DNA from: a virus
Virus record (IMG/VR): IMGVR_UViG_3300046542_000168
Location: 43,408 to 107,407 of that record
Strand: one strand, 5' to 3'
Length of the DNA stretch: 64,000 nt
The notes beneath the pieces are model-generated. The model worked only from the letters and a program-made list of their open reading frames with translations, did not search any database and was not told where the DNA came from. Shown here in pieces: positions 3,531 through 60,200 of this stretch. Made by a program: the position numbers and the translations under genes. Numbering within the stretch: position 1 is the first letter of the stretch; each line of letters begins with the position of its first letter.

Positions 3531-3635
3531 TATTCCAGGCAAACAAAAGCCGCCTTAGTAGGGCGGCTCTTGACAACGAACTCTACCGTTCATTGTAGGT
3601 GGGATGCACTGGCGTACTCCGAGGGGAATCCTATC

Positions 3636-3941
3636 ATGTGGACGAATGGCCGACAAGGCACCGGGTACGCGAAACTAACGCTCCTAGCCACCTCCAGGCT
3701 CGACTGTCACGTTTTACGATATATGCCTGGGGATAGCATTCCATCTCACACAGATAAGCTTGTGGACGGCAGGAAGCACTTCAGGATGAACATCCGGCTA
3801 GCCGGTGAAGACACTTTCAAGTGCTGCAAGGTATTGTTTAGATTCTGGCGGGTTACGATCTTCCGACCGGACCTCTATGAGCACTCAGTACCGGCAGTAA
3901 AGAGAAAACGATACATGCTCAGCATCGGCTGGGTAATATGA
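3636..3941 (+). CDS. small 2OG-Fe(II) oxygenase-like protein
   Basis: HTD...H...R arrangement (IPSHTD, YEHSV, RYMLSIGW); RBS GAGGGG before ATG 3636. Confidence 0.65.
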   Translation: MWTNGRQGTGYAKLTLLATSRLDCHVLRYMPGDSIPSHTDKLVDGRKHFRMNIRLAGEDTFKCCKVLFRFWRVTIFRPDLYEHSVPAVKRKRYMLSIGWVI

Positions 3942-4706: not shown

Positions 4707-4800
4707 ATTTGCGTTCCCCATGGGATGTCTGTGTGATGTGTCAGAGGATATACACGGCTTATTATTATGTAAAGCCCTTAGTGTAAAAGTTTTTTAAAAT

Positions 4801-5933: not shown

Positions 5934-6611
5934 ATGCCAGCAGGGTTTCAATCTATCAACGATAGCGGTACGGTCCAGATTGATGAAAACTACTCGACTC
6001 TGACCCTTATCGCTGCACCGACGATCACAATCAATGGTGCAGGCCCAGGGTCAGCGTATCCTGGCACAATGTGGGCAAGTTACACGGTTAACAGCCCCAA
6101 CCCCCAACTTTTTATCGGCAACACCTCCGGCGTATATGTAGCGGTTGTTAGCCGAACAAACCCCAGTGCTGGAGTCTGGACCTACACGTTCGCAGCAGGC
6201 GCTGCGGTTTCTGTACGGTTATTTATTTATTCACAAGCAGTAATGACTGCCGGTAACTGCGGAATGCAGGTATTTAATTCCGGTGGTGGACTCGTCTTCG
6301 ATAGTTCTGCTCCATTCCTCCGTATGTCTGCGGTATATCAGATTGGTGGTGCAGCGGGCAGTAGCTCCTTCGGTATTCCGCAAGACGGTCGGGCCTACGC
6401 TGCCGCTCTCTCATATAGTCGGTGCTCGATCACTGGCCCAGGTGCTGGTTATTACTACTGGATGGCTGAGTGGATTAACGTCAGCGGGACCACGATTACA
6501 ACATCTACTCAGGGACCAATCTACCGGTTTCCTGCAAACAACCCGTATGCCTATCCCCCTCTTGCTAACGCACCCCCGCAAGTGTTGATGGTCGATGTGA
6601 CATATATTTAA
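5934..6611 (+). CDS. virion/tail-tip protein
   Basis: G/T/S-rich beta protein with repeated G.Q..N.SG..V.D motif, ends PQVLMVDVT. Confidence 0.55.
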   Translation: MPAGFQSINDSGTVQIDENYSTLTLIAAPTITINGAGPGSAYPGTMWASYTVNSPNPQLFIGNTSGVYVAVVSRTNPSAGVWTYTFAAGAAVSVRLFIYSQAVMTAGNCGMQVFNSGGGLVFDSSAPFLRMSAVYQIGGAAGSSSFGIPQDGRAYAAALSYSRCSITGPGAGYYYWMAEWINVSGTTITTSTQGPIYRFPANNPYAYPPLANAPPQVLMVDVTYI

Positions 6612-14008: not shown

Positions 14009-14443
14009 ATGGCTGCAACAACTGAAGAAAAGATTGCTTTTATCAAGCTCCGTATCGGTGATGTAACTAGTAACCCTATCTTCCCTATGTTTACCGATGA
14101 AGAGTACACAGTTGTACTTGATGGGAACAGTGGGAACATTGAACGAACTACCCGCATGATGGCTATCAGTGCCACGATGATTGTTGGCTCTGTTAGCACT
14201 AGGGAAATGGTTGGTGACATCGAAGTACAGAACGTCTTCGCTACGAACTACCTGAAAGCCCTGGACTACCTGATTAACGATCCGATGACCCGCATTCCAG
14301 CGAACCTAATGCCGTGGGTAGCAGGTATGGATAGCCAACCAACTAAGTTGGAACAGGCTTCCGACCTATCTTGTGGATGCCGCAACGGCCTAACATTCGG
14401 CGGATATCAGTCAAGTTATCACCTCTGCACTTGCGGAGGTTGA
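14009..14443 (+). CDS. head-tail adaptor
   Basis: LRIGD...FTDEE motif and gene order. Confidence 0.7.
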   Translation: MAATTEEKIAFIKLRIGDVTSNPIFPMFTDEEYTVVLDGNSGNIERTTRMMAISATMIVGSVSTREMVGDIEVQNVFATNYLKALDYLINDPMTRIPANLMPWVAGMDSQPTKLEQASDLSCGCRNGLTFGGYQSSYHLCTCGG

Positions 14444-40778: not shown

Positions 40779-41250
40779 GCGGCCCATCGAGAGGAAAACA
40801 CCACGCTCGATACACAGATTCGCTACACAAGATCCCCGCCAGGGAGCTACCACCAAGAGCAACCGGCCCTGGGATCACACAATACGATTTTCTAGCCTGA
40901 TGGAGGTACTAACCATCAGGCTTTGTTGCGTCCAGAGTTTTTCAACCCAGTTTTAACCCGATAGCCGAGGTCCGCTTGCAGTGGGAACTTGAGTGGATAA
41001 GTACGCACATGCATTTGTATACCTCTCCTGAGCATGCAGAGGCTGTTAAACGGAACATCGAAAAGCGGTATCTGATTCTCTGCCTGCAAGCACGCATAAA
41101 GGAACTAGATCCTGGCCAAGAAGAAGAAGGGCAAGAAAAAGAAGTCCCTGCCCCGTAATTTCGTTGCAAAGAATTTGCCACTACAACATAAATCCGTCCC
41201 GTTTCGGGACAAGACAAAATATTCACGGAAAGACAGTAAGGAAGTAAGTC

Positions 41251-41826
41251 ATGATTTTGCCACAGCCGATTAACGAGTTTGCCCAGAAGTACTTTGCCGC
41301 TGAGTCCCGTGCCTCTTATAGCCACGATGGCCGTCGTCTCTCATTCCGTACAGTGGACAAGAAAGCCCTGGCCCGCGAATGTAAGGTTCTGTTGGAATCT
41401 GGTGCTGTAGAACATCTTCATCAGCTATCCACCGATTTGACCAGCTACAACCCAACAAACCCGCCTGAAACTCACACTTATCGGCTGAATGCTTTCGCTG
41501 AAGTAGTGGGCATCAAGTACCCACGCTACAAGCGTCCGTCTGCGTCTAAAGCAGAACCGAAAGCTTCCTCCCTGGCAACCCCTGCCCAGGTTGTACATCG
41601 TGCCCCCGCTCACGGCTTTGATATCCGCGAAGAACTGGGTGCCAGCTTCTCGAAGGCCCTGGTTAACGGCATGACCCTGAGCACTATCCAGGCTCACGCA
41701 AAAGAAGTATTGGTTGACTGCCACTACAAAGTGCAAGTGGGTAAGGCAACTACCGGCCTACAAGAGTTGATGCGCAACACTGGCATGACTGCATCGCAGA
41801 TTGCACAGATCGCACATCGCCTGTAA
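41251..41826 (+). CDS. hypothetical protein
   Basis: 191 aa, GTAAGG leader. Confidence 0.72.
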   Translation: MILPQPINEFAQKYFAAESRASYSHDGRRLSFRTVDKKALARECKVLLESGAVEHLHQLSTDLTSYNPTNPPETHTYRLNAFAEVVGIKYPRYKRPSASKAEPKASSLATPAQVVHRAPAHGFDIREELGASFSKALVNGMTLSTIQAHAKEVLVDCHYKVQVGKATTGLQELMRNTGMTASQIAQIAHRL

Positions 41827-42906: not shown

Positions 42907-43025
42907 TGGCGACAGTATTAACTGTAGTTGGTGGTGTGGTAGTTACCTACTTAATTATAAGCGGGCTTTATTACCACTTCAGTAAGAAAGTAGGGGTGAA
43001 AGATGACAGTTCGATATCGGGTTGA
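42906..43025 (+). CDS. small membrane protein (39 aa)
   Basis: TAGTG coupling, single TM. Confidence 0.45.
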   Translation: MATVLTVVGGVVVTYLIISGLYYHFSKKVGVKDDSSISG

Positions 43026-43197
43026 TTTTATCGAGTCGGAGCGAGGCTGGGGGCAGAAGATCGATGATACTCGGTACTTCGATACTGCTGAAGAAGCCCG
43101 CCAGTTCGTCAAGGAATACAACGACAAGCACAACCCACCTGGGCCTGTGCCTGACTGGTACTACATGGCGAGCTATCGCGGCGCTGTACCAGCGTAA
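43003..43197 (+). CDS. hypothetical phage protein
   Basis: 64 aa, ESERGWGQKID...PDWY. Confidence 0.7.
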   Translation: MTVRYRVDFIESERGWGQKIDDTRYFDTAEEARQFVKEYNDKHNPPGPVPDWYYMASYRGAVPA

Positions 43198-43234
43198 TCT
43201 CACAAACACAGTAAGTAAGTAAGACAGGAAGACA

Positions 43235-44539
43235 ATGAACTTTATTAAGAAAGCAGGTATCGGTATTGCAGCCGGTGCCTTGGTACTGATCGGCACATTC
43301 AATAGTGTATTCGTATACAACGAAGCCGGTTATCAAACTCACATTCGTACAATCACGGGTGAAGAGAAAGTAGTTACCGAAGTTGGTTATGCCACTAAGT
43401 GGTTCGGTAAGGCCACGCCCTGGAAGCAGGCACAAACCCTCCAGTTCTCCATCGTTAAAGAAGGTGAAACAAGCCGTGAGGTTGATGACGGCGTAGGGAT
43501 CGACAACTACCGCGTTACCTTCCTGGGCAACGTTGATGGTGTTGTGGAAGCTTCCACACGATTCCGTATGCCCCAGGGCGAACAGTTCCTGAAGATTGCT
43601 CGTGAGTATCGCACTCCAGACAACTTCATGCAGACTGCTGTATTGCCAGCAGTGAAAGAGACTCTGCAAACTACAGCGTCCCTGATGACTGCCGATGAAT
43701 ACTTCGCTGGTAGCCGCTCTGAGTTTAGTTCGAACTTCGATGACCAACTTCGAAATGGCCAGTTCGCAGTTAAACGTAAGGAAGTTCAACAAGTAATTGA
43801 AACCAATCGTAGCGAAGGTGACAAGCTTGTTTCCGGTGCTGGTATTGACGGTGAACAGAAACGTACAGCGTTCGTAACTGAGAAAGAAACTGACGACAAG
43901 GGCCGTGAAGTTCGCAAGTCCCAGGTCTTCGTTGGTATGGGTGTAGACGTTGTAGAGGCTCGTGTCCCTAACATCCTGCCGAACCCTCAGTTCCTGGCTC
44001 GCATGGTCAAGGTGCAATCGGCCCAGGCGGATCTGGTAGTCGCTCGTGCGGATCGTCTGAAAGAGGAAGAGGCGAAGCTGCTGGCCATCGCTCGTGGTCA
44101 ACGCAACGTCGAAGAGAAGCGCCAAGAAACCTTGCGTAATCAGGTCGAGCAGACCACCAACGCAGAAACCACCAAGCTCCTGGCGATCACCGCTGCTAAG
44201 CAGGCTGAAGAGTCGGCAGCCATCTCTAAGCGTACCTCCGTCGAGCTGCTGGCAAAGGCTGAGATTGACGCCAAGGCGACCAAGACCACTGCTGATGCTG
44301 AGGCGTATGCGAAAAAGGCTCTGATCCTCGCTGACGGCGCTCTGACGCAGAAACTGGCTACCCTGGAGAACATCAACAGCGTGTGGGCCCAGGCTGCTGC
44401 TAACGCCCCTGTACCGAGCGTGATGATGGGTAATGGTGGTGGTCAAGGTTCTAGCCGTCAGAGTGAGATTGGTGAACTAATGTCGATCATGGCTGCAAAG
44501 GCTGCGAAAGACTTGTCGGTTGATCTTTCCACTAAGTAA
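43235..44539 (+). CDS. SPFH/Band-7 (flotillin-like) membrane protein
   Basis: N-terminal TM, Band-7-like core, long AE-rich coiled coil, VPSVMMG end. Confidence 0.85.
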   Translation: MNFIKKAGIGIAAGALVLIGTFNSVFVYNEAGYQTHIRTITGEEKVVTEVGYATKWFGKATPWKQAQTLQFSIVKEGETSREVDDGVGIDNYRVTFLGNVDGVVEASTRFRMPQGEQFLKIAREYRTPDNFMQTAVLPAVKETLQTTASLMTADEYFAGSRSEFSSNFDDQLRNGQFAVKRKEVQQVIETNRSEGDKLVSGAGIDGEQKRTAFVTEKETDDKGREVRKSQVFVGMGVDVVEARVPNILPNPQFLARMVKVQSAQADLVVARADRLKEEEAKLLAIARGQRNVEEKRQETLRNQVEQTTNAETTKLLAITAAKQAEESAAISKRTSVELLAKAEIDAKATKTTADAEAYAKKALILADGALTQKLATLENINSVWAQAAANAPVPSVMMGNGGGQGSSRQSEIGELMSIMAAKAAKDLSVDLSTK

Positions 44540-45770: not shown

Positions 45771-46268
45771 ATGGCTAGCGGCAAGAAAACGGTTAAAAAT
45801 CGTACAGAAATGACCGTCACCGATCACACGACTGGGGAGGCTCTATCGAGTGAAAAAACCGTCACGTACAGAGTCCCGAGAGAGCCGGACTTTGTAAAGG
45901 TGTACACCGGGGCCTTTAAGGAGGTAGTCACAAAGAAGGGTTGCCATCTGGCGATGTTTATGCTTCTGGTTGACAAGATGGGGTATGAGAATGAAATCGG
46001 CCTGACCCCGGCCGGTCGTGTCAGGATCTGCGAAGCCCTGGGTATCCAGGCACAGACCTTCCGAAACCATTTGAATGACTTGCTGGAGCGCGATGTTCTC
46101 CGTCGAACTAGTCACGGAGAGTTCATAGTAAACCCGACGTATATTGCCAGGGGTGAGTTCGAGAAAATTCTGCCCAGGATAGAGGCGTACAATAAGATCG
46201 GGAGGGTGAAAACTAAGAAGGGTCGGGCCCCGAAGCCTAAAGAATCCCTGGAAGAGTCAACTAATTGA
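45771..46268 (+). CDS. RepL-like wHTH replication/maintenance protein
   Basis: D..TGE, FVKVY, HTH (ICEALGIQAQTFRNHL..L), G.FIVNP.YI.RG. Confidence 0.7.
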   Translation: MASGKKTVKNRTEMTVTDHTTGEALSSEKTVTYRVPREPDFVKVYTGAFKEVVTKKGCHLAMFMLLVDKMGYENEIGLTPAGRVRICEALGIQAQTFRNHLNDLLERDVLRRTSHGEFIVNPTYIARGEFEKILPRIEAYNKIGRVKTKKGRAPKPKESLEESTN

Positions 46269-46980: not shown

Positions 46981-47420
46981 TAATTATTCAACCACTTCTT
47001 TAAGTGGCCGCGTGATGACGTGGTTGAGCCCTCACGTCACTGATGCAGCGCTTACCTGGGCAAGCGGTCACTATAGCAACCACTCCCCTGCGTAACCCCT
47101 CACGCGATTAGATGCCTAACTGACTGATTCGTCAAGCGATCAACCACGCAAGTGACCATTCAAGTAAGCGGACACTCGGTCAATTAGCCGAGTCATCACG
47201 CGGGTGATGAATCAATCGTTCAAGCAATTGATGGATCAATGGACCGATTGAACGATGGATCAATGAAGCCATTGATCCATCGGATGTATATACAACCCAT
47301 GGGTCAATGGATCACTCGTTCAAGCAATTGATTGATCACTCGTTTGCTTGGTCAGTCACTTCGCCGCCTGCTTGCCTGACTGGTCATCCAGTTTGATGCT
47401 TGCGTGCTTGCTCGGCTTCT
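46981..47420. repeat. degenerate 4-nt-period array (candidate centromere, part 1)
   Basis: in-register tetramers caat/tgat/cgat/caag/cact; extends into the 3' end of parA. Confidence 0.7.
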
Positions 47421-48135
47421 TCACCACCTTTGCCTTGCCCACTTCTTCATTAGTAAGTGGGTCGATGATTACTGGGTTTTCGACATGAATGCCCAGCTCC
47501 ATCAGGATGCAGTCGGTTAGGGCGGCAATCTCCCTGGCACCCTTATTACGCTTATCAATCTCGGCCAGGGTGCTACCAGTTCTCAGACAGTTCACGAAAC
47601 CTGCCTTGTAGTGGATGGTAGGGCCAAGCTTCCCGGCAGACGCCAGGGCAATCACTGCATCAGTTGCAATGTTGGTGGTCGGATGTACTTCGTTCAGTAC
47701 GAACAGCCGGGGAGTAGTGATTTCTTTCGAAGTGAGGTCGCTCAACGACTTGACCATCGACCACAGGTCGAAGTAGCTAGCCTTCGAAGGCATAACCAAC
47801 AGGTCAGCAAGTTTGAGCACGTTGAAGATATCGCTGTGGCCGAAACCTGGGGTGTCGATCACCAGGAAATCCAGGCCCCCCGCTTCCAGCTTCGGGATTA
47901 CTGCTTCTAGCTGATCGATGCCGATAGCCAGCAACTCTGGGTCGCCCAACTCGCGCTTGTCCAACCATGTAGTGGTGTTCGCAGTGGGGTCGATGTCCAT
48001 CATGCCAACGTGGTAGCCCTTCGATGCCAGGGTGCCGCCGAGTTGAACGCTGATGGTGGACTTACCACAGCCGCCCTTCTGGTTGGTGACACAGATGATC
48101 TTGAGCTTACGCTTGAACTGACTAGGGAGTTGCAT
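47356..48135 (-). CDS. parA: ParA-family partition ATPase (type Ib, no N-terminal HTH)
   Basis: deviant Walker A NQKGGCGKST, DIDP, VIDTPG, ADLLVMP. Confidence 0.92.
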   Translation of the reverse strand: MQLPSQFKRKLKIICVTNQKGGCGKSTISVQLGGTLASKGYHVGMMDIDPTANTTTWLDKRELGDPELLAIGIDQLEAVIPKLEAGGLDFLVIDTPGFGHSDIFNVLKLADLLVMPSKASYFDLWSMVKSLSDLTSKEITTPRLFVLNEVHPTTNIATDAVIALASAGKLGPTIHYKAGFVNCLRTGSTLAEIDKRNKGAREIAALTDCILMELGIHVENPVIIDPLTNEEVGKAKVVKKPSKHASIKLDDQSGKQAAK

Positions 48136-48160: not shown

Positions 48161-48980
48161 TCACTGAGTGAGCTATTCCTTGCTAGGTTGACCGCTTACG
48201 CGGCTGAGTGCGTCCGTGCGTGGGCAAGCTATCGATGGGGCAGTCGGTCACTCGCGTAACCCATCACTGCATCAATCGCCTGGGTAATCCCCTAAGTGCG
48301 CAATTCATCGAGCCATTCATTGGCCGATCATTTCACTGCTTGAGTCATCCATCGCTCGATTGGTCGGTAGCGTGCTTCTTCACTTAATCAATGCGTCAAT
48401 CAAGTGCTTCCGCACGCAACCCATCAAGCAAGCCATTAGTCCATCCATCGCTTCCGTAAGCACTCACTGGCGCGATTCACCACTTACTTGGTCGTTCGCT
48501 TGCGTGAGTGACTGGTTACGCGGTGAAGCAACTACTGGCTTGCTCAACCACTCCCTCGCTCGACTATCTGATTGCCCGACCGATTAAGGCAGGAATCAAT
48601 CAATGAGTCAGTCAACGAAGCAGTTGCTCGATCAACCGAGTCATCACTCGGTCAGGAACTCAATCACTTGCGCCCTTGAGGAACCATTTAAACACCCGCT
48701 CGATCCCTTGTCAAACTAATTGATAGCTTAAAGCCTTCATGAATTGATCGTGCGACTGACCGATAGATCGATAGGCTGATGAATTGAGTGACCAACCGAT
48801 GGAGCGATGATTGACTGAAGTAATTGATATCTCCATTCCTGAAGCAAGCAATGCCGCACTGATGTGTGTGAGGCAATGATGACAGGACCGAATGAACAAG
48901 CGTCCAATGGGTCAAGCAATTGATGGATCAATGGGTCGAGCGTTCAATGGGTCAATGGAACCATGGGATGTATATACAAG
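48161..48980. repeat. degenerate 4-nt-period array (candidate centromere, part 2)
   Basis: same tetramer register for ~800 bp; shares TCAAGCAATTGATGGATCAATGG and GGATGTATATACAA blocks with part 1. Confidence 0.7.
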
Positions 48981-49137
48981 TAACGGTCCTACGCCGATTC
49001 TGACCAGTTCACAGGAGCTAAGCCCCTGCCAGGGCACCCAGGGTCGGCATACCGCTATCCAGGCCAATACCAGGGCAGATACGCAACGTCGCTACAGGGG
49101 GCTCATAGGGGCTTCAGGCGGTAAATTCGCAGGAGGG

Positions 49138-49289
49138 TTGCAAGGATGGGAGGAAGTGGATAGAGTGCCGTCCGTCGAACGTTGCTGACCCTCATAATCT
49201 CCCCGGAATATGTTGGTCCGTTGCTTCCTTGCTCTGATCCGTGATTGGTGGCGTTCGATACTAAGCCGCTCCCTCGTGAGCGGCTTTTT
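49138..49289 (+). ncRNA. sRNA cassette 1 (promoter + ~115 nt + terminator)
   Basis: TTGCAA-N17-TAGAGT; terminator AAGCCGCTC/GAGCGGCTT-TTT; no + strand ORF with RBS. Confidence 0.55.
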
Positions 49290-49381
49290 CATGCCCGCAA
49301 TAATTGCCTCACAGGGGCTCTATCCCGCAAGGCCCATCGGTCAGATTGTCCTACACCTCAGATGAACGGTGCCATCACTCA

Positions 49382-49485
49382 TTGCGTCAGGTGCCATCAT
49401 TGGGTAAAATCCCTGGGTTGGTTGTACAGTTCGCCTACTCAGCAACAACATCGAGAAGCCGCCCACACCGGGGCGGCTTTTCTTT
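49382..49485 (+). ncRNA. sRNA cassette 2 (promoter + ~70 nt + terminator)
   Basis: TTGCGT-N17-TAAAAT; terminator AAGCCGCCC/GGGCGGCTT-TTT. Confidence 0.55.
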
Positions 49486-49517
49486 ATCTGATGGAATGGC
49501 TGGACAGGCGAACAGTA

Positions 49518-49533
49518 CTGTATATAATTACAG
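49518..49533. promoter_or_regulatory. LexA (SOS) box overlapping a -10 element
   Basis: taCTGTATATAATTACAG = CTGT-N8-ACAG; promoter TGGACA-N16-TATAAT. Confidence 0.85.
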
Positions 49534-49534
49534 C

Positions 49535-49626
49535 GTTAACCTCGGTAGGGACTCGTCATCCCTTCACCAGTCTTAGGGTGGATTCGTCGTCCACACTTTA
49601 GCCGCCTACCAGGGCGGCTTTTCTTT
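49535..49626 (+). ncRNA. sRNA cassette 3, predicted SOS-inducible ~90-nt RNA
   Basis: lies between the LexA-boxed promoter and terminator AGCCGCC/GGCGGCT-TTT; no credible ORF. Confidence 0.6.
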
Positions 49627-49704
49627 GCTCGATGGGGAAGGAGTAGAGGGAGGGGTAGAGCAGAAATGAAGAAGGGCCTCGATTGAGGCCCTTGCTTGTG
49701 TAGC

Positions 49705-50097
49705 TTATTCGTTGAGAGTGGCCCAACCTTTTACCGCTTCAACTCCCCACTTCTTCCTCCACTCATTGAGCACTGTGTGGTTGCCGTGAGAGCTAACAAT
49801 TTTCTCGTTAGTGTGAGGATTTACCCAGGTCTTTGTGGGCCTTCCTCCCTCTGTTGTAGCTGCTGCCTTAGCTACCTTAGCTGCACCTGTAGCTTGAGCT
49901 TTCGGAGCCTTATAGTTCTCATCAAGGATCTGATTCACATCTACCAGGGAGCGAGAGTGCTTAGCTAGGAGAGCACGTAGCTCACTCTCGAATACCTGTA
50001 GCGACTTAAGCTCAGGGTCATCCTGAAGAGCATCCAGTTGAGCTTTAGCCGCAGCTAGGGCAGCTCGTGCGAGACGGAGTTGAACGATCTTGGACAT
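49705..50097 (-). CDS. second MvaT-family nucleoid protein (divergent)
   Basis: FE.ELRALL..H..SL.DV..IL and W.NPHTNE.I....GNH.VL.EW..KWG.EAV.GW. Confidence 0.85.
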   Translation of the reverse strand: MSKIVQLRLARAALAAAKAQLDALQDDPELKSLQVFESELRALLAKHSRSLVDVNQILDENYKAPKAQATGAAKVAKAAATTEGGRPTKTWVNPHTNEKIVSSHGNHTVLNEWRKKWGVEAVKGWATLNE

Positions 50098-50205
50098 ATA
50101 GCTCTCTTGCGTGATTGGTGGAAAGTCTTACACTAGCAGTGCGTTAAGTCGCGCACTATAAGCTCAAGTAGCTCGCAACGGAAGAGAGTACTCAAGCTTA
50201 AGCTC

Positions 50206-50318
50206 AAAAATTCCATCACAGGGGCCTCTCAAAAACTCCATTACAGGGGGTACAGATTTCCTCACAGTGGGGTACTGAATTTCCCTACAGGGGCTAGCTG
50301 AGTTTCCTCACACGGGGT
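50206..50318 (+). repeat. five imperfect ~23-bp direct repeats
   Basis: YTCC..YACA.GGGG cores with ACA at 50218, 50243, 50264, 50287 and 50310. Confidence 0.7.
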
Positions 50319-50552: not shown

Positions 50553-50581
50553 CTAATACAGCATAGTCTATGCTGTATTAG
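50553..50581. promoter_or_regulatory. perfect 29-bp palindromic operator
   Basis: CTAATACAGCATAG-T-CTATGCTGTATTAG; core matches the early-promoter operator. Confidence 0.7.
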
Positions 50582-50807: not shown

Positions 50808-51590
50808 ATGAAATACCGCATAGAAGTACAGCAAGTTTTCACGGCTCAAGGTTATGACCGTGGCGGGGAATGGTTGGCCCTGGGCGACAAGCCACGCGGC
50901 AAGGCCGCTGCAATCGCCCTGATGGAAACTATCCAGGCCGCTAGTGGTTTGGAGCCTCCTTACCGCGTAGTCTCGGTTGACGCCCTGGGGGATCGCGTGG
51001 AAGTGGCGAGGATCGAAAGCCCGCATAAACCGGCCCCTAAGTATGCAGTCGAAGTAACAGACGCCCAGGGCGAGAAACGCCAGGAATTCGAATCGCTCCC
51101 CCTGGCTATGCAAATGTATACCGCTTGTGTTGACGGTGCCGAGAATGACCCACGCAAGGGCTATACCCGTCGTGTCGCCCTGGTCGGGATTGAGTCCGGC
51201 GATACTTACTATAAATGGGAGTATCTAGTCCCCCAGGCCCAGACCGGCGCTAATAAACGCCCTGAAGGGTTGACCGGCTCCCAGCTCGACTGGGCCTGTA
51301 AGCAGCCATGGTTCCACGCTTGCGAATACTTTAATGAGTTGTCGCGTAACTGGATTGTCTGGGCAAAGGAGGGGGATAAGGTTCACCCCTTTGCTGACTT
51401 TGCGGAGTTGCAAGCCTGGGCAAAGGCTAAAGAAGCCCAGGCGACTAAGCCGGTACTTTATCAAGTTTTCGAAAAGGCAACCGGGGAGGCAGTTGGCAAG
51501 AAGTATCATAATAGGAACGGCGCGGAGAATTATTGCGACGGGTTCCACCCCTACGCCCCCGGCTGTTATGAGGTAAGGCAAGTTCAATAA
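50808..51590 (+). CDS. hypothetical early protein (multi-domain)
   Basis: 260 aa, RBS GGGGAG. Confidence 0.75.
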   Translation: MKYRIEVQQVFTAQGYDRGGEWLALGDKPRGKAAAIALMETIQAASGLEPPYRVVSVDALGDRVEVARIESPHKPAPKYAVEVTDAQGEKRQEFESLPLAMQMYTACVDGAENDPRKGYTRRVALVGIESGDTYYKWEYLVPQAQTGANKRPEGLTGSQLDWACKQPWFHACEYFNELSRNWIVWAKEGDKVHPFADFAELQAWAKAKEAQATKPVLYQVFEKATGEAVGKKYHNRNGAENYCDGFHPYAPGCYEVRQVQ

Positions 51591-59095: not shown

Positions 59096-59472
59096 CAAGC
59101 AAGGCGCTAGACCGGATAATGGGACGCCTAGATAAGGCGCTTGCAAAGGCTATGCAGATAGCCCTAACCGAGATTGAAAAGGAGGCCAGGAAGGCTATAG
59201 AGGCTAGCCCGGATACAGTTAAAAGCTTTTGTATGGCAATGGGGAGTGCATCTTTCCACGTTGTCTGGCTTGAAAACTGGGACGGGGAGCCGATGCCTAG
59301 GGATGAGCATATAAACCCGGATGAATTCGAAAAGTATGGGCATATAAACCGCCATGCTGGAAATATTGCAAAGCTGTTAAATGAATATAATTGTATGTTG
59401 CGGCTTACCGGCTATCCGATGAAAATAGTACGCGACGACGACGGCGAACTTATTAAACTTAAAGACTGGTGA
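59092..59472 (+). CDS. hypothetical early protein
   Basis: ATGA coupling. Confidence 0.7.
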   Translation: MTSKALDRIMGRLDKALAKAMQIALTEIEKEARKAIEASPDTVKSFCMAMGSASFHVVWLENWDGEPMPRDEHINPDEFEKYGHINRHAGNIAKLLNEYNCMLRLTGYPMKIVRDDDGELIKLKDW

Positions 59473-59476
59473 ACCT

Positions 59477-59755
59477 ATGACGACTCAATCAATTCCTTTA
59501 GATCAACTGCAAACTGTACTAGAACATAAGTTCCAGTTTCGCCATATTAAAAACGCCAGGACTGCTAAAGGCTTTTTTGTAAAATTGGAACGGTGCCCGC
59601 TCCCCATCTATAACGATAATGCGGAATATTCCGGGGCCGATCTATTGTCTATGCTGGGCAAGCTAACCGAGTGGGAAAAGACTATTGCAGAATGTAGGGA
59701 AGGACTCTATGACGCTCTAGCAGCCCAGGTAAAGGCCCAGCAAGCTAACCGCTAA
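59477..59755 (+). CDS. hypothetical early protein
   Basis: operon packing, followed by terminator. Confidence 0.68.
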   Translation: MTTQSIPLDQLQTVLEHKFQFRHIKNARTAKGFFVKLERCPLPIYNDNAEYSGADLLSMLGKLTEWEKTIAECREGLYDALAAQVKAQQANR

Positions 59756-60137: not shown

Positions 60138-60200
60138 GCTAAGCACGGGGACGGCAAAGGGCCTAACCGCTAAGCCTAGTAAGGCAAAGGAAGCTAAAAA

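Follow-up and report, generated by a model that had tools for sequence, protein, structure and literature searches.

The question raised by this locus is whether three short stretches of non-coding DNA, each lying between a promoter-like site and an intrinsic terminator, are genes for small RNAs (sRNAs), and what such RNAs might do for the virus that carries them. The window, by which we mean the whole 64-kb stretch of DNA that was analyzed, is the right-hand part of a virus record of 107,407 bp, which is complete and has 127-bp terminal repeats. Positions are those of the window unless the genome is named. The large terminase is 42% identical to its counterpart in Pseudomonas putida phage phiPMW. 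The record is probably the genome of a 107-kb Pseudomonas-type phage that lives as a plasmid (a phage-plasmid), a view that fits the gene content around the locus (RepL-like, ParA-like, and MvaT-like). The sRNA locus, 49138-49626, falls within a 1.57-kb gap without credible genes that extends from the parA-like to the MvaT-like gene, whose product has relatives at 60-87% identity; four close ones are encoded on contigs of 107,570, 46,979, 25,613, and 98,276 nt. The neighborhood is as follows.

45771-46268: RepL-like gene, 3 kb from the sRNA units
47356-48135, minus strand: ParA-like ATPase gene, which borders the 1.57-kb gap on one side
49672-49693, minus strand: terminator that ends the convergent MvaT-like gene and bounds the locus
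49705-50097, minus strand: gene for an MvaT-like (H-NS-type silencer) protein of 130 amino acids (Pfam MvaT_DBD, 28.1 bits; cut-off, 27)

Three plus-strand units lie in 49138-49626, each with a promoter-like site, a folded body of 65-117 nt, and an intrinsic terminator with a GCCGC stem. All of the promoter and terminator elements that a sequence-only reading had claimed for three cassettes were found, at the positions given here.

49138-49166, plus strand: P1, promoter-like site TTGCAA-17-TAGAGT, 8/12, weak by its hexamers alone
49173-49289, plus strand: predicted RNA1, about 117 nt, a long closing helix around the exposed CU-rich stretch UUGCUUCCUUGCUCU, followed by T1
49263-49288, plus strand: terminator T1
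49382-49410, plus strand: P2, TTGCGT-17-TAAAAT, 8/12
49417-49483, plus strand: predicted RNA2, about 67 nt, a 5' stem-loop that presents the core GTTCGCCTACTCAGCAACAACA, followed by T2
49429-49450, plus strand: the conserved 22-nt core of RNA2
49453-49482, plus strand: terminator T2
49501-49528, plus strand: P3, TGGACA-16-TATAAT, 11/12
49518-49533, plus strand: SOS (LexA) box CTGTATATAATTACAG, overlapping the P3 -10
49535-49624, plus strand: predicted RNA3, about 90 nt, two similar hairpins, a CCUUCACC stretch, and T3
49544-49568: RNA3 hairpin 1, loop CUCGUCA
49575-49598: RNA3 hairpin 2, loop UUCGUCG
49600-49619, plus strand: terminator T3

The three promoters differ in how far their hexamers set them apart from the rest of the genome. 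P3 is among the top five sites, being one of 5 matches at 11/12 to sigma-70 on both strands of the 107-kb genome. Sites that score 8/12, as P1 and P2 do, number 430 across the genome, and the hexamers of these two taken alone therefore count for nothing. Support for P1 as a promoter of its own is geometric only and comes from the start of the helix relative to the -10. In both RNA1 and RNA2 the first helix starts 7-8 nt past the -10, and the closing helix of RNA1, at 8 nt, fits a transcription start near 49173. The predicted RNAs fold more stably than dinucleotide shuffles, with z scores of -4.8 for RNA1 (-42.8 kcal/mol), -5.6 for RNA2, and -2.9 for RNA3.

T1-T3 are real and related, as had been claimed; they share AGCCGC...GCGGCTTTT plus downstream letters, and the likeness of T2 and T3 runs on past the T-run. 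A strict scan of both strands of the 107 kb returned 21 terminators, and 3 of them (ending at 49284, 49477, and 49618) lie within 335 nt on the plus strand, a clustering with a p value of about 0.01 under uniform placement, which is a rough estimate. The idea of stand-alone units running from promoter to terminator was borne out, in that each appears to have its own promoter and terminator and no gene follows. We rejected a reading of the units as leaders or riboswitches, because they lie in a gene-free gap with no downstream gene and unit 3 is convergent with the terminator of the MvaT-like gene, 50 nt from its end. We also rejected recognizable duplication, since the units can be aligned to one another only at the terminators and at one upstream motif, CTCA(T/C)AGGGGCT.

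Unit 3 carries a further element. The box CTGTATATAATTACAG is a CTGT-N8-ACAG palindrome with an AT-rich center; it contains the P3 -10 TATAAT (49523-49528), and its last letter is 2 nt upstream of the predicted RNA3 start. No other SOS box turned up in the 107 kb by the criteria used, which were CTG-N10-CAG and at most six mismatches to the 20-nt gammaproteobacterial consensus. In three Pseudomonadaceae genomes with mvaT, the operators in front of lexA read CTGTATATAATTCCAG or CTGTATATAATCCCAG, and CTGTATAAAAAGACAG; the 16-nt core of the phage box matches the lexA operator CTGTATATAATTCCAG at 15/16 positions. In the one relative that could be aligned in full, the metagenome contig L064, a box CTGGTTAAAATTACAG stands at the same place over the -10, and its CTGG half-site is also present in host lexA operators. 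P3 therefore reads as a putative promoter of the LexA (SOS) regulon type found in gammaproteobacteria. Since the third RNA gene stands behind the phage's only LexA binding site, its RNA may carry the phage's DNA-damage signal. No Peptidase_S24 domain was found in the whole 107-kb genome, which means that no self-cleaving repressor is encoded in it.

L064 is 107,168 bp long, and its MvaT-like and RepL-like proteins are 69% and 36% identical to those of the window genome. Read in the orientation of the window, it has units 2 and 3 without unit 1, so RNA1 is lineage-specific. Its counterparts of P2 (TTGTGC-17-TAGACT) and P3 (TGTACA-16-TAAAAT) have unchanged spacing, and its version of the RNA2 core GTTCGCCTACTCAGCAACAACA keeps 20 of the 22 letters. 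Over P2 (68%), the RNA2 stem-loop, and the P3 region including the box, the window and L064 are 68-73% identical; in spacers and flanks the figure drops to 18-46%. The folds are also kept, with a z score of -5.1 for the L064 homologue of RNA2 and -3.8 for that of RNA3, which has one hairpin (GGUGAA-CUGGUCC-UUCACC) and a terminator where the window has two similar hairpins. In the basal stem of RNA2 a U-A pair has become C-G, changed on both sides, and RNA3 has one compensatory change from G-C to A-U, which amounts to one covarying pair per RNA in a comparison of two sequences. The L064 terminators retain their pairing with different letters.

Closer relatives came from contigs of four public runs, which match parts of the locus at about 88-93% identity; those of two runs (X2 and X4) span all three units, unit 1 included. 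Runs X2 and X3, both from the same organism, suggest that there are isolates carrying this phage or a relative. Among the listed runs that contain this DNA, none is recorded as an RNA run. Among the differences listed for these two, which are the best-supported ones and give a partial view, those common to both number 6 in the 92-nt spacer between T1 and P2 and 1 each in units 2 and 3, and none lies inside the RNA2 core stretch. Searches of other collections were negative. We found no relatives among GenBank phages (near and distant blastn) or PLSDB plasmids, nothing close in IMG/VR with the MvaT-like protein, its alignment, and three DNA patterns as queries, and only distant ParA genes (25-51% identity) with a ParA query. 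The RNA2 core pattern had 4 matches in GTDB genomes, in unrelated metagenome-assembled genomes and at about the number expected by chance. A comparison of the locus DNA with 401 Pseudomonadaceae genomes returned only chromosomal mvaT, terminator look-alikes, and one host-gene match. This last, TTCGCCTGCTCAGCAACAACATCGA, agrees with the RNA2 core at 24/25 nt and is found in 8 of the 401 genomes (loci L085-L089), some 80 nt from the start of a host gene whose product has a hydrophobic N-terminal segment. Because the match is in the same sense it is not a pairing site, and we judged it to be due to chance, with which the numbers are compatible.

Two further regulatory features of the genome were noted. 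A 99-codon open reading frame (ORF) at genome positions 43,021-43,320, about 90-390 nt before the window starts, matches HTH_3 weakly, at a sub-threshold 20.4 bits, and is the only candidate for an XRE-type regulator that we found. A 27-nt palindrome, TAATACAGCATAGACTATGCTGTATTA, lies at 50554-50580, between the MvaT-like gene and a rightward operon that starts at 50808; the corresponding position in L064 (about 3533-3549) is occupied by another palindrome, CAGTAA-N5-TTACTG. The palindrome at 50554-50580 is probably the operator of a phage regulator.

The DNA around the units is also rich in repeats.

49101-49112, minus strand: iteron-like copy GCCCCTATGAGC, about 25 nt upstream of the P1 -35
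49307-49318, minus strand: exact iteron-like copy GCCCCTGTGAGG, upstream of P2
49368-49399, plus strand: two exact copies of GGTGCCATCA, 22 bp apart, the second in the P2 spacer
50214-50317, minus strand: array of four GCCCCTGTGAGG copies with a spacing of about 23 bp, upstream of the MvaT-like gene

The iteron-like motif of the GCCCCTGTGAGG type has 14 matches with at most two mismatches, where 5.4 are expected, and the CTCA(T/C)AGGGGCT motif upstream of the units is a member of this family. L064 has an analogous array, of the CCCCTGTAGCGTAATTTG type, at 3758-3890. These arrays may represent an origin, or an operator array common to the MvaT-like promoter and the sRNA promoters. The GGTGCCATCA direct repeats are exact and 22 bp apart, as the sequence-only reading had described, and are the only exact copies within the window; the second is conserved in L064 as GGTGCCATCATTGG. 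An inverted match between RNA2 and the P3 spacer, also described there, is present in the window and is not clearly kept in L064. Beside parA, a word (G/C)GTATATACAAG at 48966-48985 forms the right edge of a repeat lattice, and the roughly 300 nt bearing unit 1 are inserted directly after it. The same word occurs on both sides of the parA block in L064 (about 4775-4790 and 6045-6065).

Such repeats are one reason to ask whether the locus works as DNA rather than as RNA. T1-T3 could be a terminator stack that insulates the MvaT-like gene and the centromere and parA from stray plus-strand transcription, while the islands GGTGCCATCATTGG, the RNA2 core, and the SOS box would be protein-binding DNA sites and the short transcripts by-products. 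Sites of the kind that proteins bind do abound here (the iteron-like copies at 49101 and 49307, the array at 50214-50317, and GGTGCCATCA), P1 and P2 are weak promoters, and the conserved RNA2 core, for which no target was found, could be a protein's DNA site. However, a near-consensus, LexA-gated promoter that feeds only a terminator 70-90 nt away would be poor logic for an insulator. DNA sites also do not account for helices that begin at the predicted +1, for RNA2 and RNA3 stems that change on both sides with pairing retained, or for L064 terminators that still pair with different letters. We regard this regulatory-DNA explanation as unlikely.

The units might instead act in cis on minus-strand transcription running from the MvaT-like gene toward parA, either through transcriptional interference or by being antisense in cis to a long leader of parA. 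The arrangement invites this idea, as every unit is oriented opposite to the genes on either side and parA, whose promoter was not located, lies 1.5 kb from the MvaT-like terminator; the antisense strand folds as well (z scores from -2.1 to -3.7). Transcription of the MvaT-like gene, however, would meet a good terminator of its own at 49672-49693, a promoter scan of the gap found no minus-strand promoter, and interference would be limited by strong terminators after 65-117 nt. Taken together, these points leave a cis role decidedly improbable.

A third possibility is that at least one unit makes a small peptide, such as a type I toxin that is induced by SOS and countered by an RNA antitoxin, on the pattern of tisB/istR or dinQ/agrB. 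Among the small RNAs known to be linked to the SOS response, those of SOS-controlled type I pairs are the most common (PMC10907235), and RNA1 contains the start of a 51-codon ORF (49210-49365) whose first residues are hydrophobic. This ORF reads through T1 with no stop before the terminator, however, and is without a good Shine-Dalgarno site; it has no Pfam match and is absent from L064. Most of the differences that fall in it in X2 and X4 are non-silent: the 6 listed as common to both comprise 4 residue changes, 1 stop, and 1 silent change. RNA3, the unit under SOS control, has no ATG start, and neither has its L064 homologue before the terminator. The stretch from P3 to T3 contains no frame, and what follows T3 is a frame of just 6 codons and then sequence antisense to the MvaT-like gene. 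The claim that the units lack a credible ORF held for the other frames too: no ORF overlapping them has a Pfam match, a 66-codon antisense ORF has lost its start codon in relatives (49290 C>T), and all overlapping ORFs are absent from L064 or disrupted there by indels. A peptide product is thus very improbable. Least credible of all is a chance arrangement of function-less terminator-like hairpins and promoter-like hexamers in non-coding DNA, for although 8/12 promoter matches are common and a loose terminator scan of the region came near expectation (5 found against 3.2), the strict-scan terminators cluster at the locus, the unique SOS box sits on a top-five promoter, and units 2 and 3 are conserved in L064.

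We compared the units with established classes of RNA and of SOS-linked loci. No Rfam family reached its gathering score, and the best sub-threshold matches (E values of 0.3-9) were to unrelated families. The C4 antisense RNA was rejected because its covariance model is not among the Rfam matches up to an E value of 10. A plasmid counter-transcribed RNA (ctRNA) was rejected on the distance of 3 kb to the RepL-like gene, the lack of antisense overlap, and an 8-bp match between RNA2 and the RepL start region that is not kept in L064; the match to the Rfam family ctRNA_pND324 scored 20.7 bits against a threshold of 45. A type I toxin-antitoxin locus was rejected for want of a conserved small hydrophobic toxin ORF, and a LexA-gated protein antirepressor of the AntC/Gifsy type for want of a small protein gene behind the SOS box.

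To rank candidate targets, we scored pairing, with a simple correction for accessibility, at 192 predicted start regions of a single genome, with 14 shuffles per RNA as controls.

41222-41248, plus strand: candidate RNA1 site over the Shine-Dalgarno sequence of ORF 41251-41826; rank 1, -22.5 kcal/mol
50100-50122, minus strand: candidate RNA1 site in the MvaT-like 5' untranslated region (UTR); rank 2 of the 192 start regions
59461-59487, plus strand: candidate RNA3 site in the start region of ORF 59477-59755; rank 1, -18.3
13998, 60187, and 60744: copies of AAGGAAGC before the starts at 14009, 60201, and 60758

None of the 14 shuffles reached the RNA1 score at ORF 41251. The predicted pairing of RNA1 with the MvaT-like message combines a 12-bp perfect match (50110-50121) with 5 bp over the Shine-Dalgarno site, and 0/14 shuffles reach it for second place. 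The AATCACG part of this site is missing in L064, which is without RNA1, an observation that would be consistent with the pairing and proves nothing. The MvaT-like 5' UTR itself (50098-50160, minus strand; 3940-4000 in L064) is well conserved, reading ...CTTAACGCACT.CTAGTGT..GACTTTCCACC..., which suggests that the silencer gene is controlled post-transcriptionally or by structure. RNA3 is predicted to pair with the ORF 59477 start region through a 12-bp perfect match at 59462-59473, which was likewise reached by none of the 14 shuffles.

Most of the pairing seeds proposed from the sequence alone were not supported. For the RNA1 seed CTCATAATCTCCCC, the only complement in the window is its own antisense strand. 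The suggestion that RNA1 targets ribosome-binding sites through AAGGAAGC at 60187 stood in part: this is a real Shine-Dalgarno-like site, and 3 of the 5 non-self copies of AAGGAAGC lie 4-7 nt before start codons, but the complementarity (RNA1 contains the exact complement, GCUUCCUU) is a generic 8-nt anti-Shine-Dalgarno one. Exact complementary words of 10-12 nt occur at chance level genome-wide, and plain duplex folding over the whole genome yields meaningless long duplexes. No local target common to the window genome and L064 was seen. The 401 Pseudomonadaceae genomes show no enrichment of sequences complementary to the RNA2 loop, which occur in 8 of them, with control patterns at least as frequent.

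On balance, we lean toward the explanation that the locus holds three independently transcribed, terminator-ended, trans-acting sRNA genes in the maintenance region of a phage-plasmid, with RNA3 induced by DNA damage. It builds on the elements seen in the sequence, on how rare they are in this genome, on the fact that one relative conserves units 2 and 3, and on the resemblance between the box and host lexA operators. That the units are transcribed, that LexA binds the box, that the RNAs act in trans, and which targets they have are all inferred from these observations. The support is strongest for unit 3. Host LexA bound over the P3 -10 would keep RNA3 off, and DNA damage, by causing LexA cleavage, would release a burst of RNA3. 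Given that a second SOS box and a self-cleaving repressor domain are both missing from the genome, RNA3 is likely the DNA-damage output of the element. RNA2, the most conserved unit, may offer its 22-nt conserved loop and linker as a surface for base pairing or protein binding. RNA1 would be a recent, lineage-specific addition that most plausibly blocks translation of phage mRNAs through its exposed CU-rich anti-Shine-Dalgarno stretch, with ORF 41251 and the neighboring MvaT-like gene as its best predicted targets. The locus had also been read as an RNA switchboard in which each RNA answers a different signal; P3 can indeed be tied to a signal by the SOS box over its -10, whereas no signal was found for P1 or P2 and no linked targets emerged. 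Our more tentative proposal, which we put forward as a possibility, is that RNA3 is the RNA counterpart of a protein antirepressor, the only DNA-damage output of an element without a self-cleaving repressor. Once LexA was cleaved, RNA3 would act by pairing to move the element out of plasmid maintenance and into lytic growth (or to alter host physiology), with RNA1 and RNA2 as further inputs to that decision.

Known systems share parts of this design. Among the closest is DinR of Klebsiella pneumoniae, a LexA-controlled, Hfq-dependent, trans-acting sRNA that covers a ribosome-binding site (PMC10907235). Like DinR, RNA3 is non-coding and has a LexA box at its promoter, and coverage of a ribosome-binding site is predicted here; unlike DinR, it has its own promoter and terminator and is borne on a phage-plasmid, and the two have no common sequence. 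The SOS-linked type I toxin-antitoxin loci IstR-2/tisB and agrB/dinQ of E. coli (PMC2577331, PMC3567139) are also LexA-box loci with small RNAs. IstR-2 and agrB, however, pair with the mRNA of an adjacent toxin, whereas the present locus is without a conserved small toxin ORF. GfoA, GfhA, and GftA of the Gifsy prophages are small protein antirepressors gated by LexA (PMC3121763). As with these and with AntC of the phage-plasmid N15, there is no self-cleaving repressor here, and DNA damage would be sensed through one LexA-repressed promoter of a small product, but that product would be an RNA of about 90 nt without a reading frame, and its effect on induction is putative. Plasmid ctRNAs resemble the units in being small terminator-ended RNAs in a replicon maintenance region, but they overlap the rep leader in antisense, while the RepL-like gene here is 3 kb away. 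Finally, the c4 antisense RNA of P1 and P7 resembles the RNAs proposed here in being small and structured, in coming from the control region of a phage-plasmid, and in having hairpin loops as likely pairing surfaces (CUCGUCA and UUCGUCG in RNA3). The c4 RNA is processed from the operon that it controls and is not known to be under LexA control.

At its most modest, the finding is of three putative, uncatalogued phage sRNA genes beside an MvaT-type silencer gene and a partition system, regions for which RNA control has hardly been described. RNA2 would be a new RNA family with a surface under strong constraint, its core kept at 20/22 letters while the neighboring proteins drifted to 36-69% identity. 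In the cases of temperate phages known to us, DNA damage is sensed via proteins, either a self-cleaving repressor or a LexA-gated antirepressor. Here the sole SOS box of a complete 107-kb phage-plasmid that encodes no S24 domain sits on the promoter of a predicted non-coding RNA. If true, this offers a compact and testable model, one promoter and one 90-nt RNA, and if RNA3 is made and acts on the decision between maintenance and lysis, it would add an RNA route to prophage induction.
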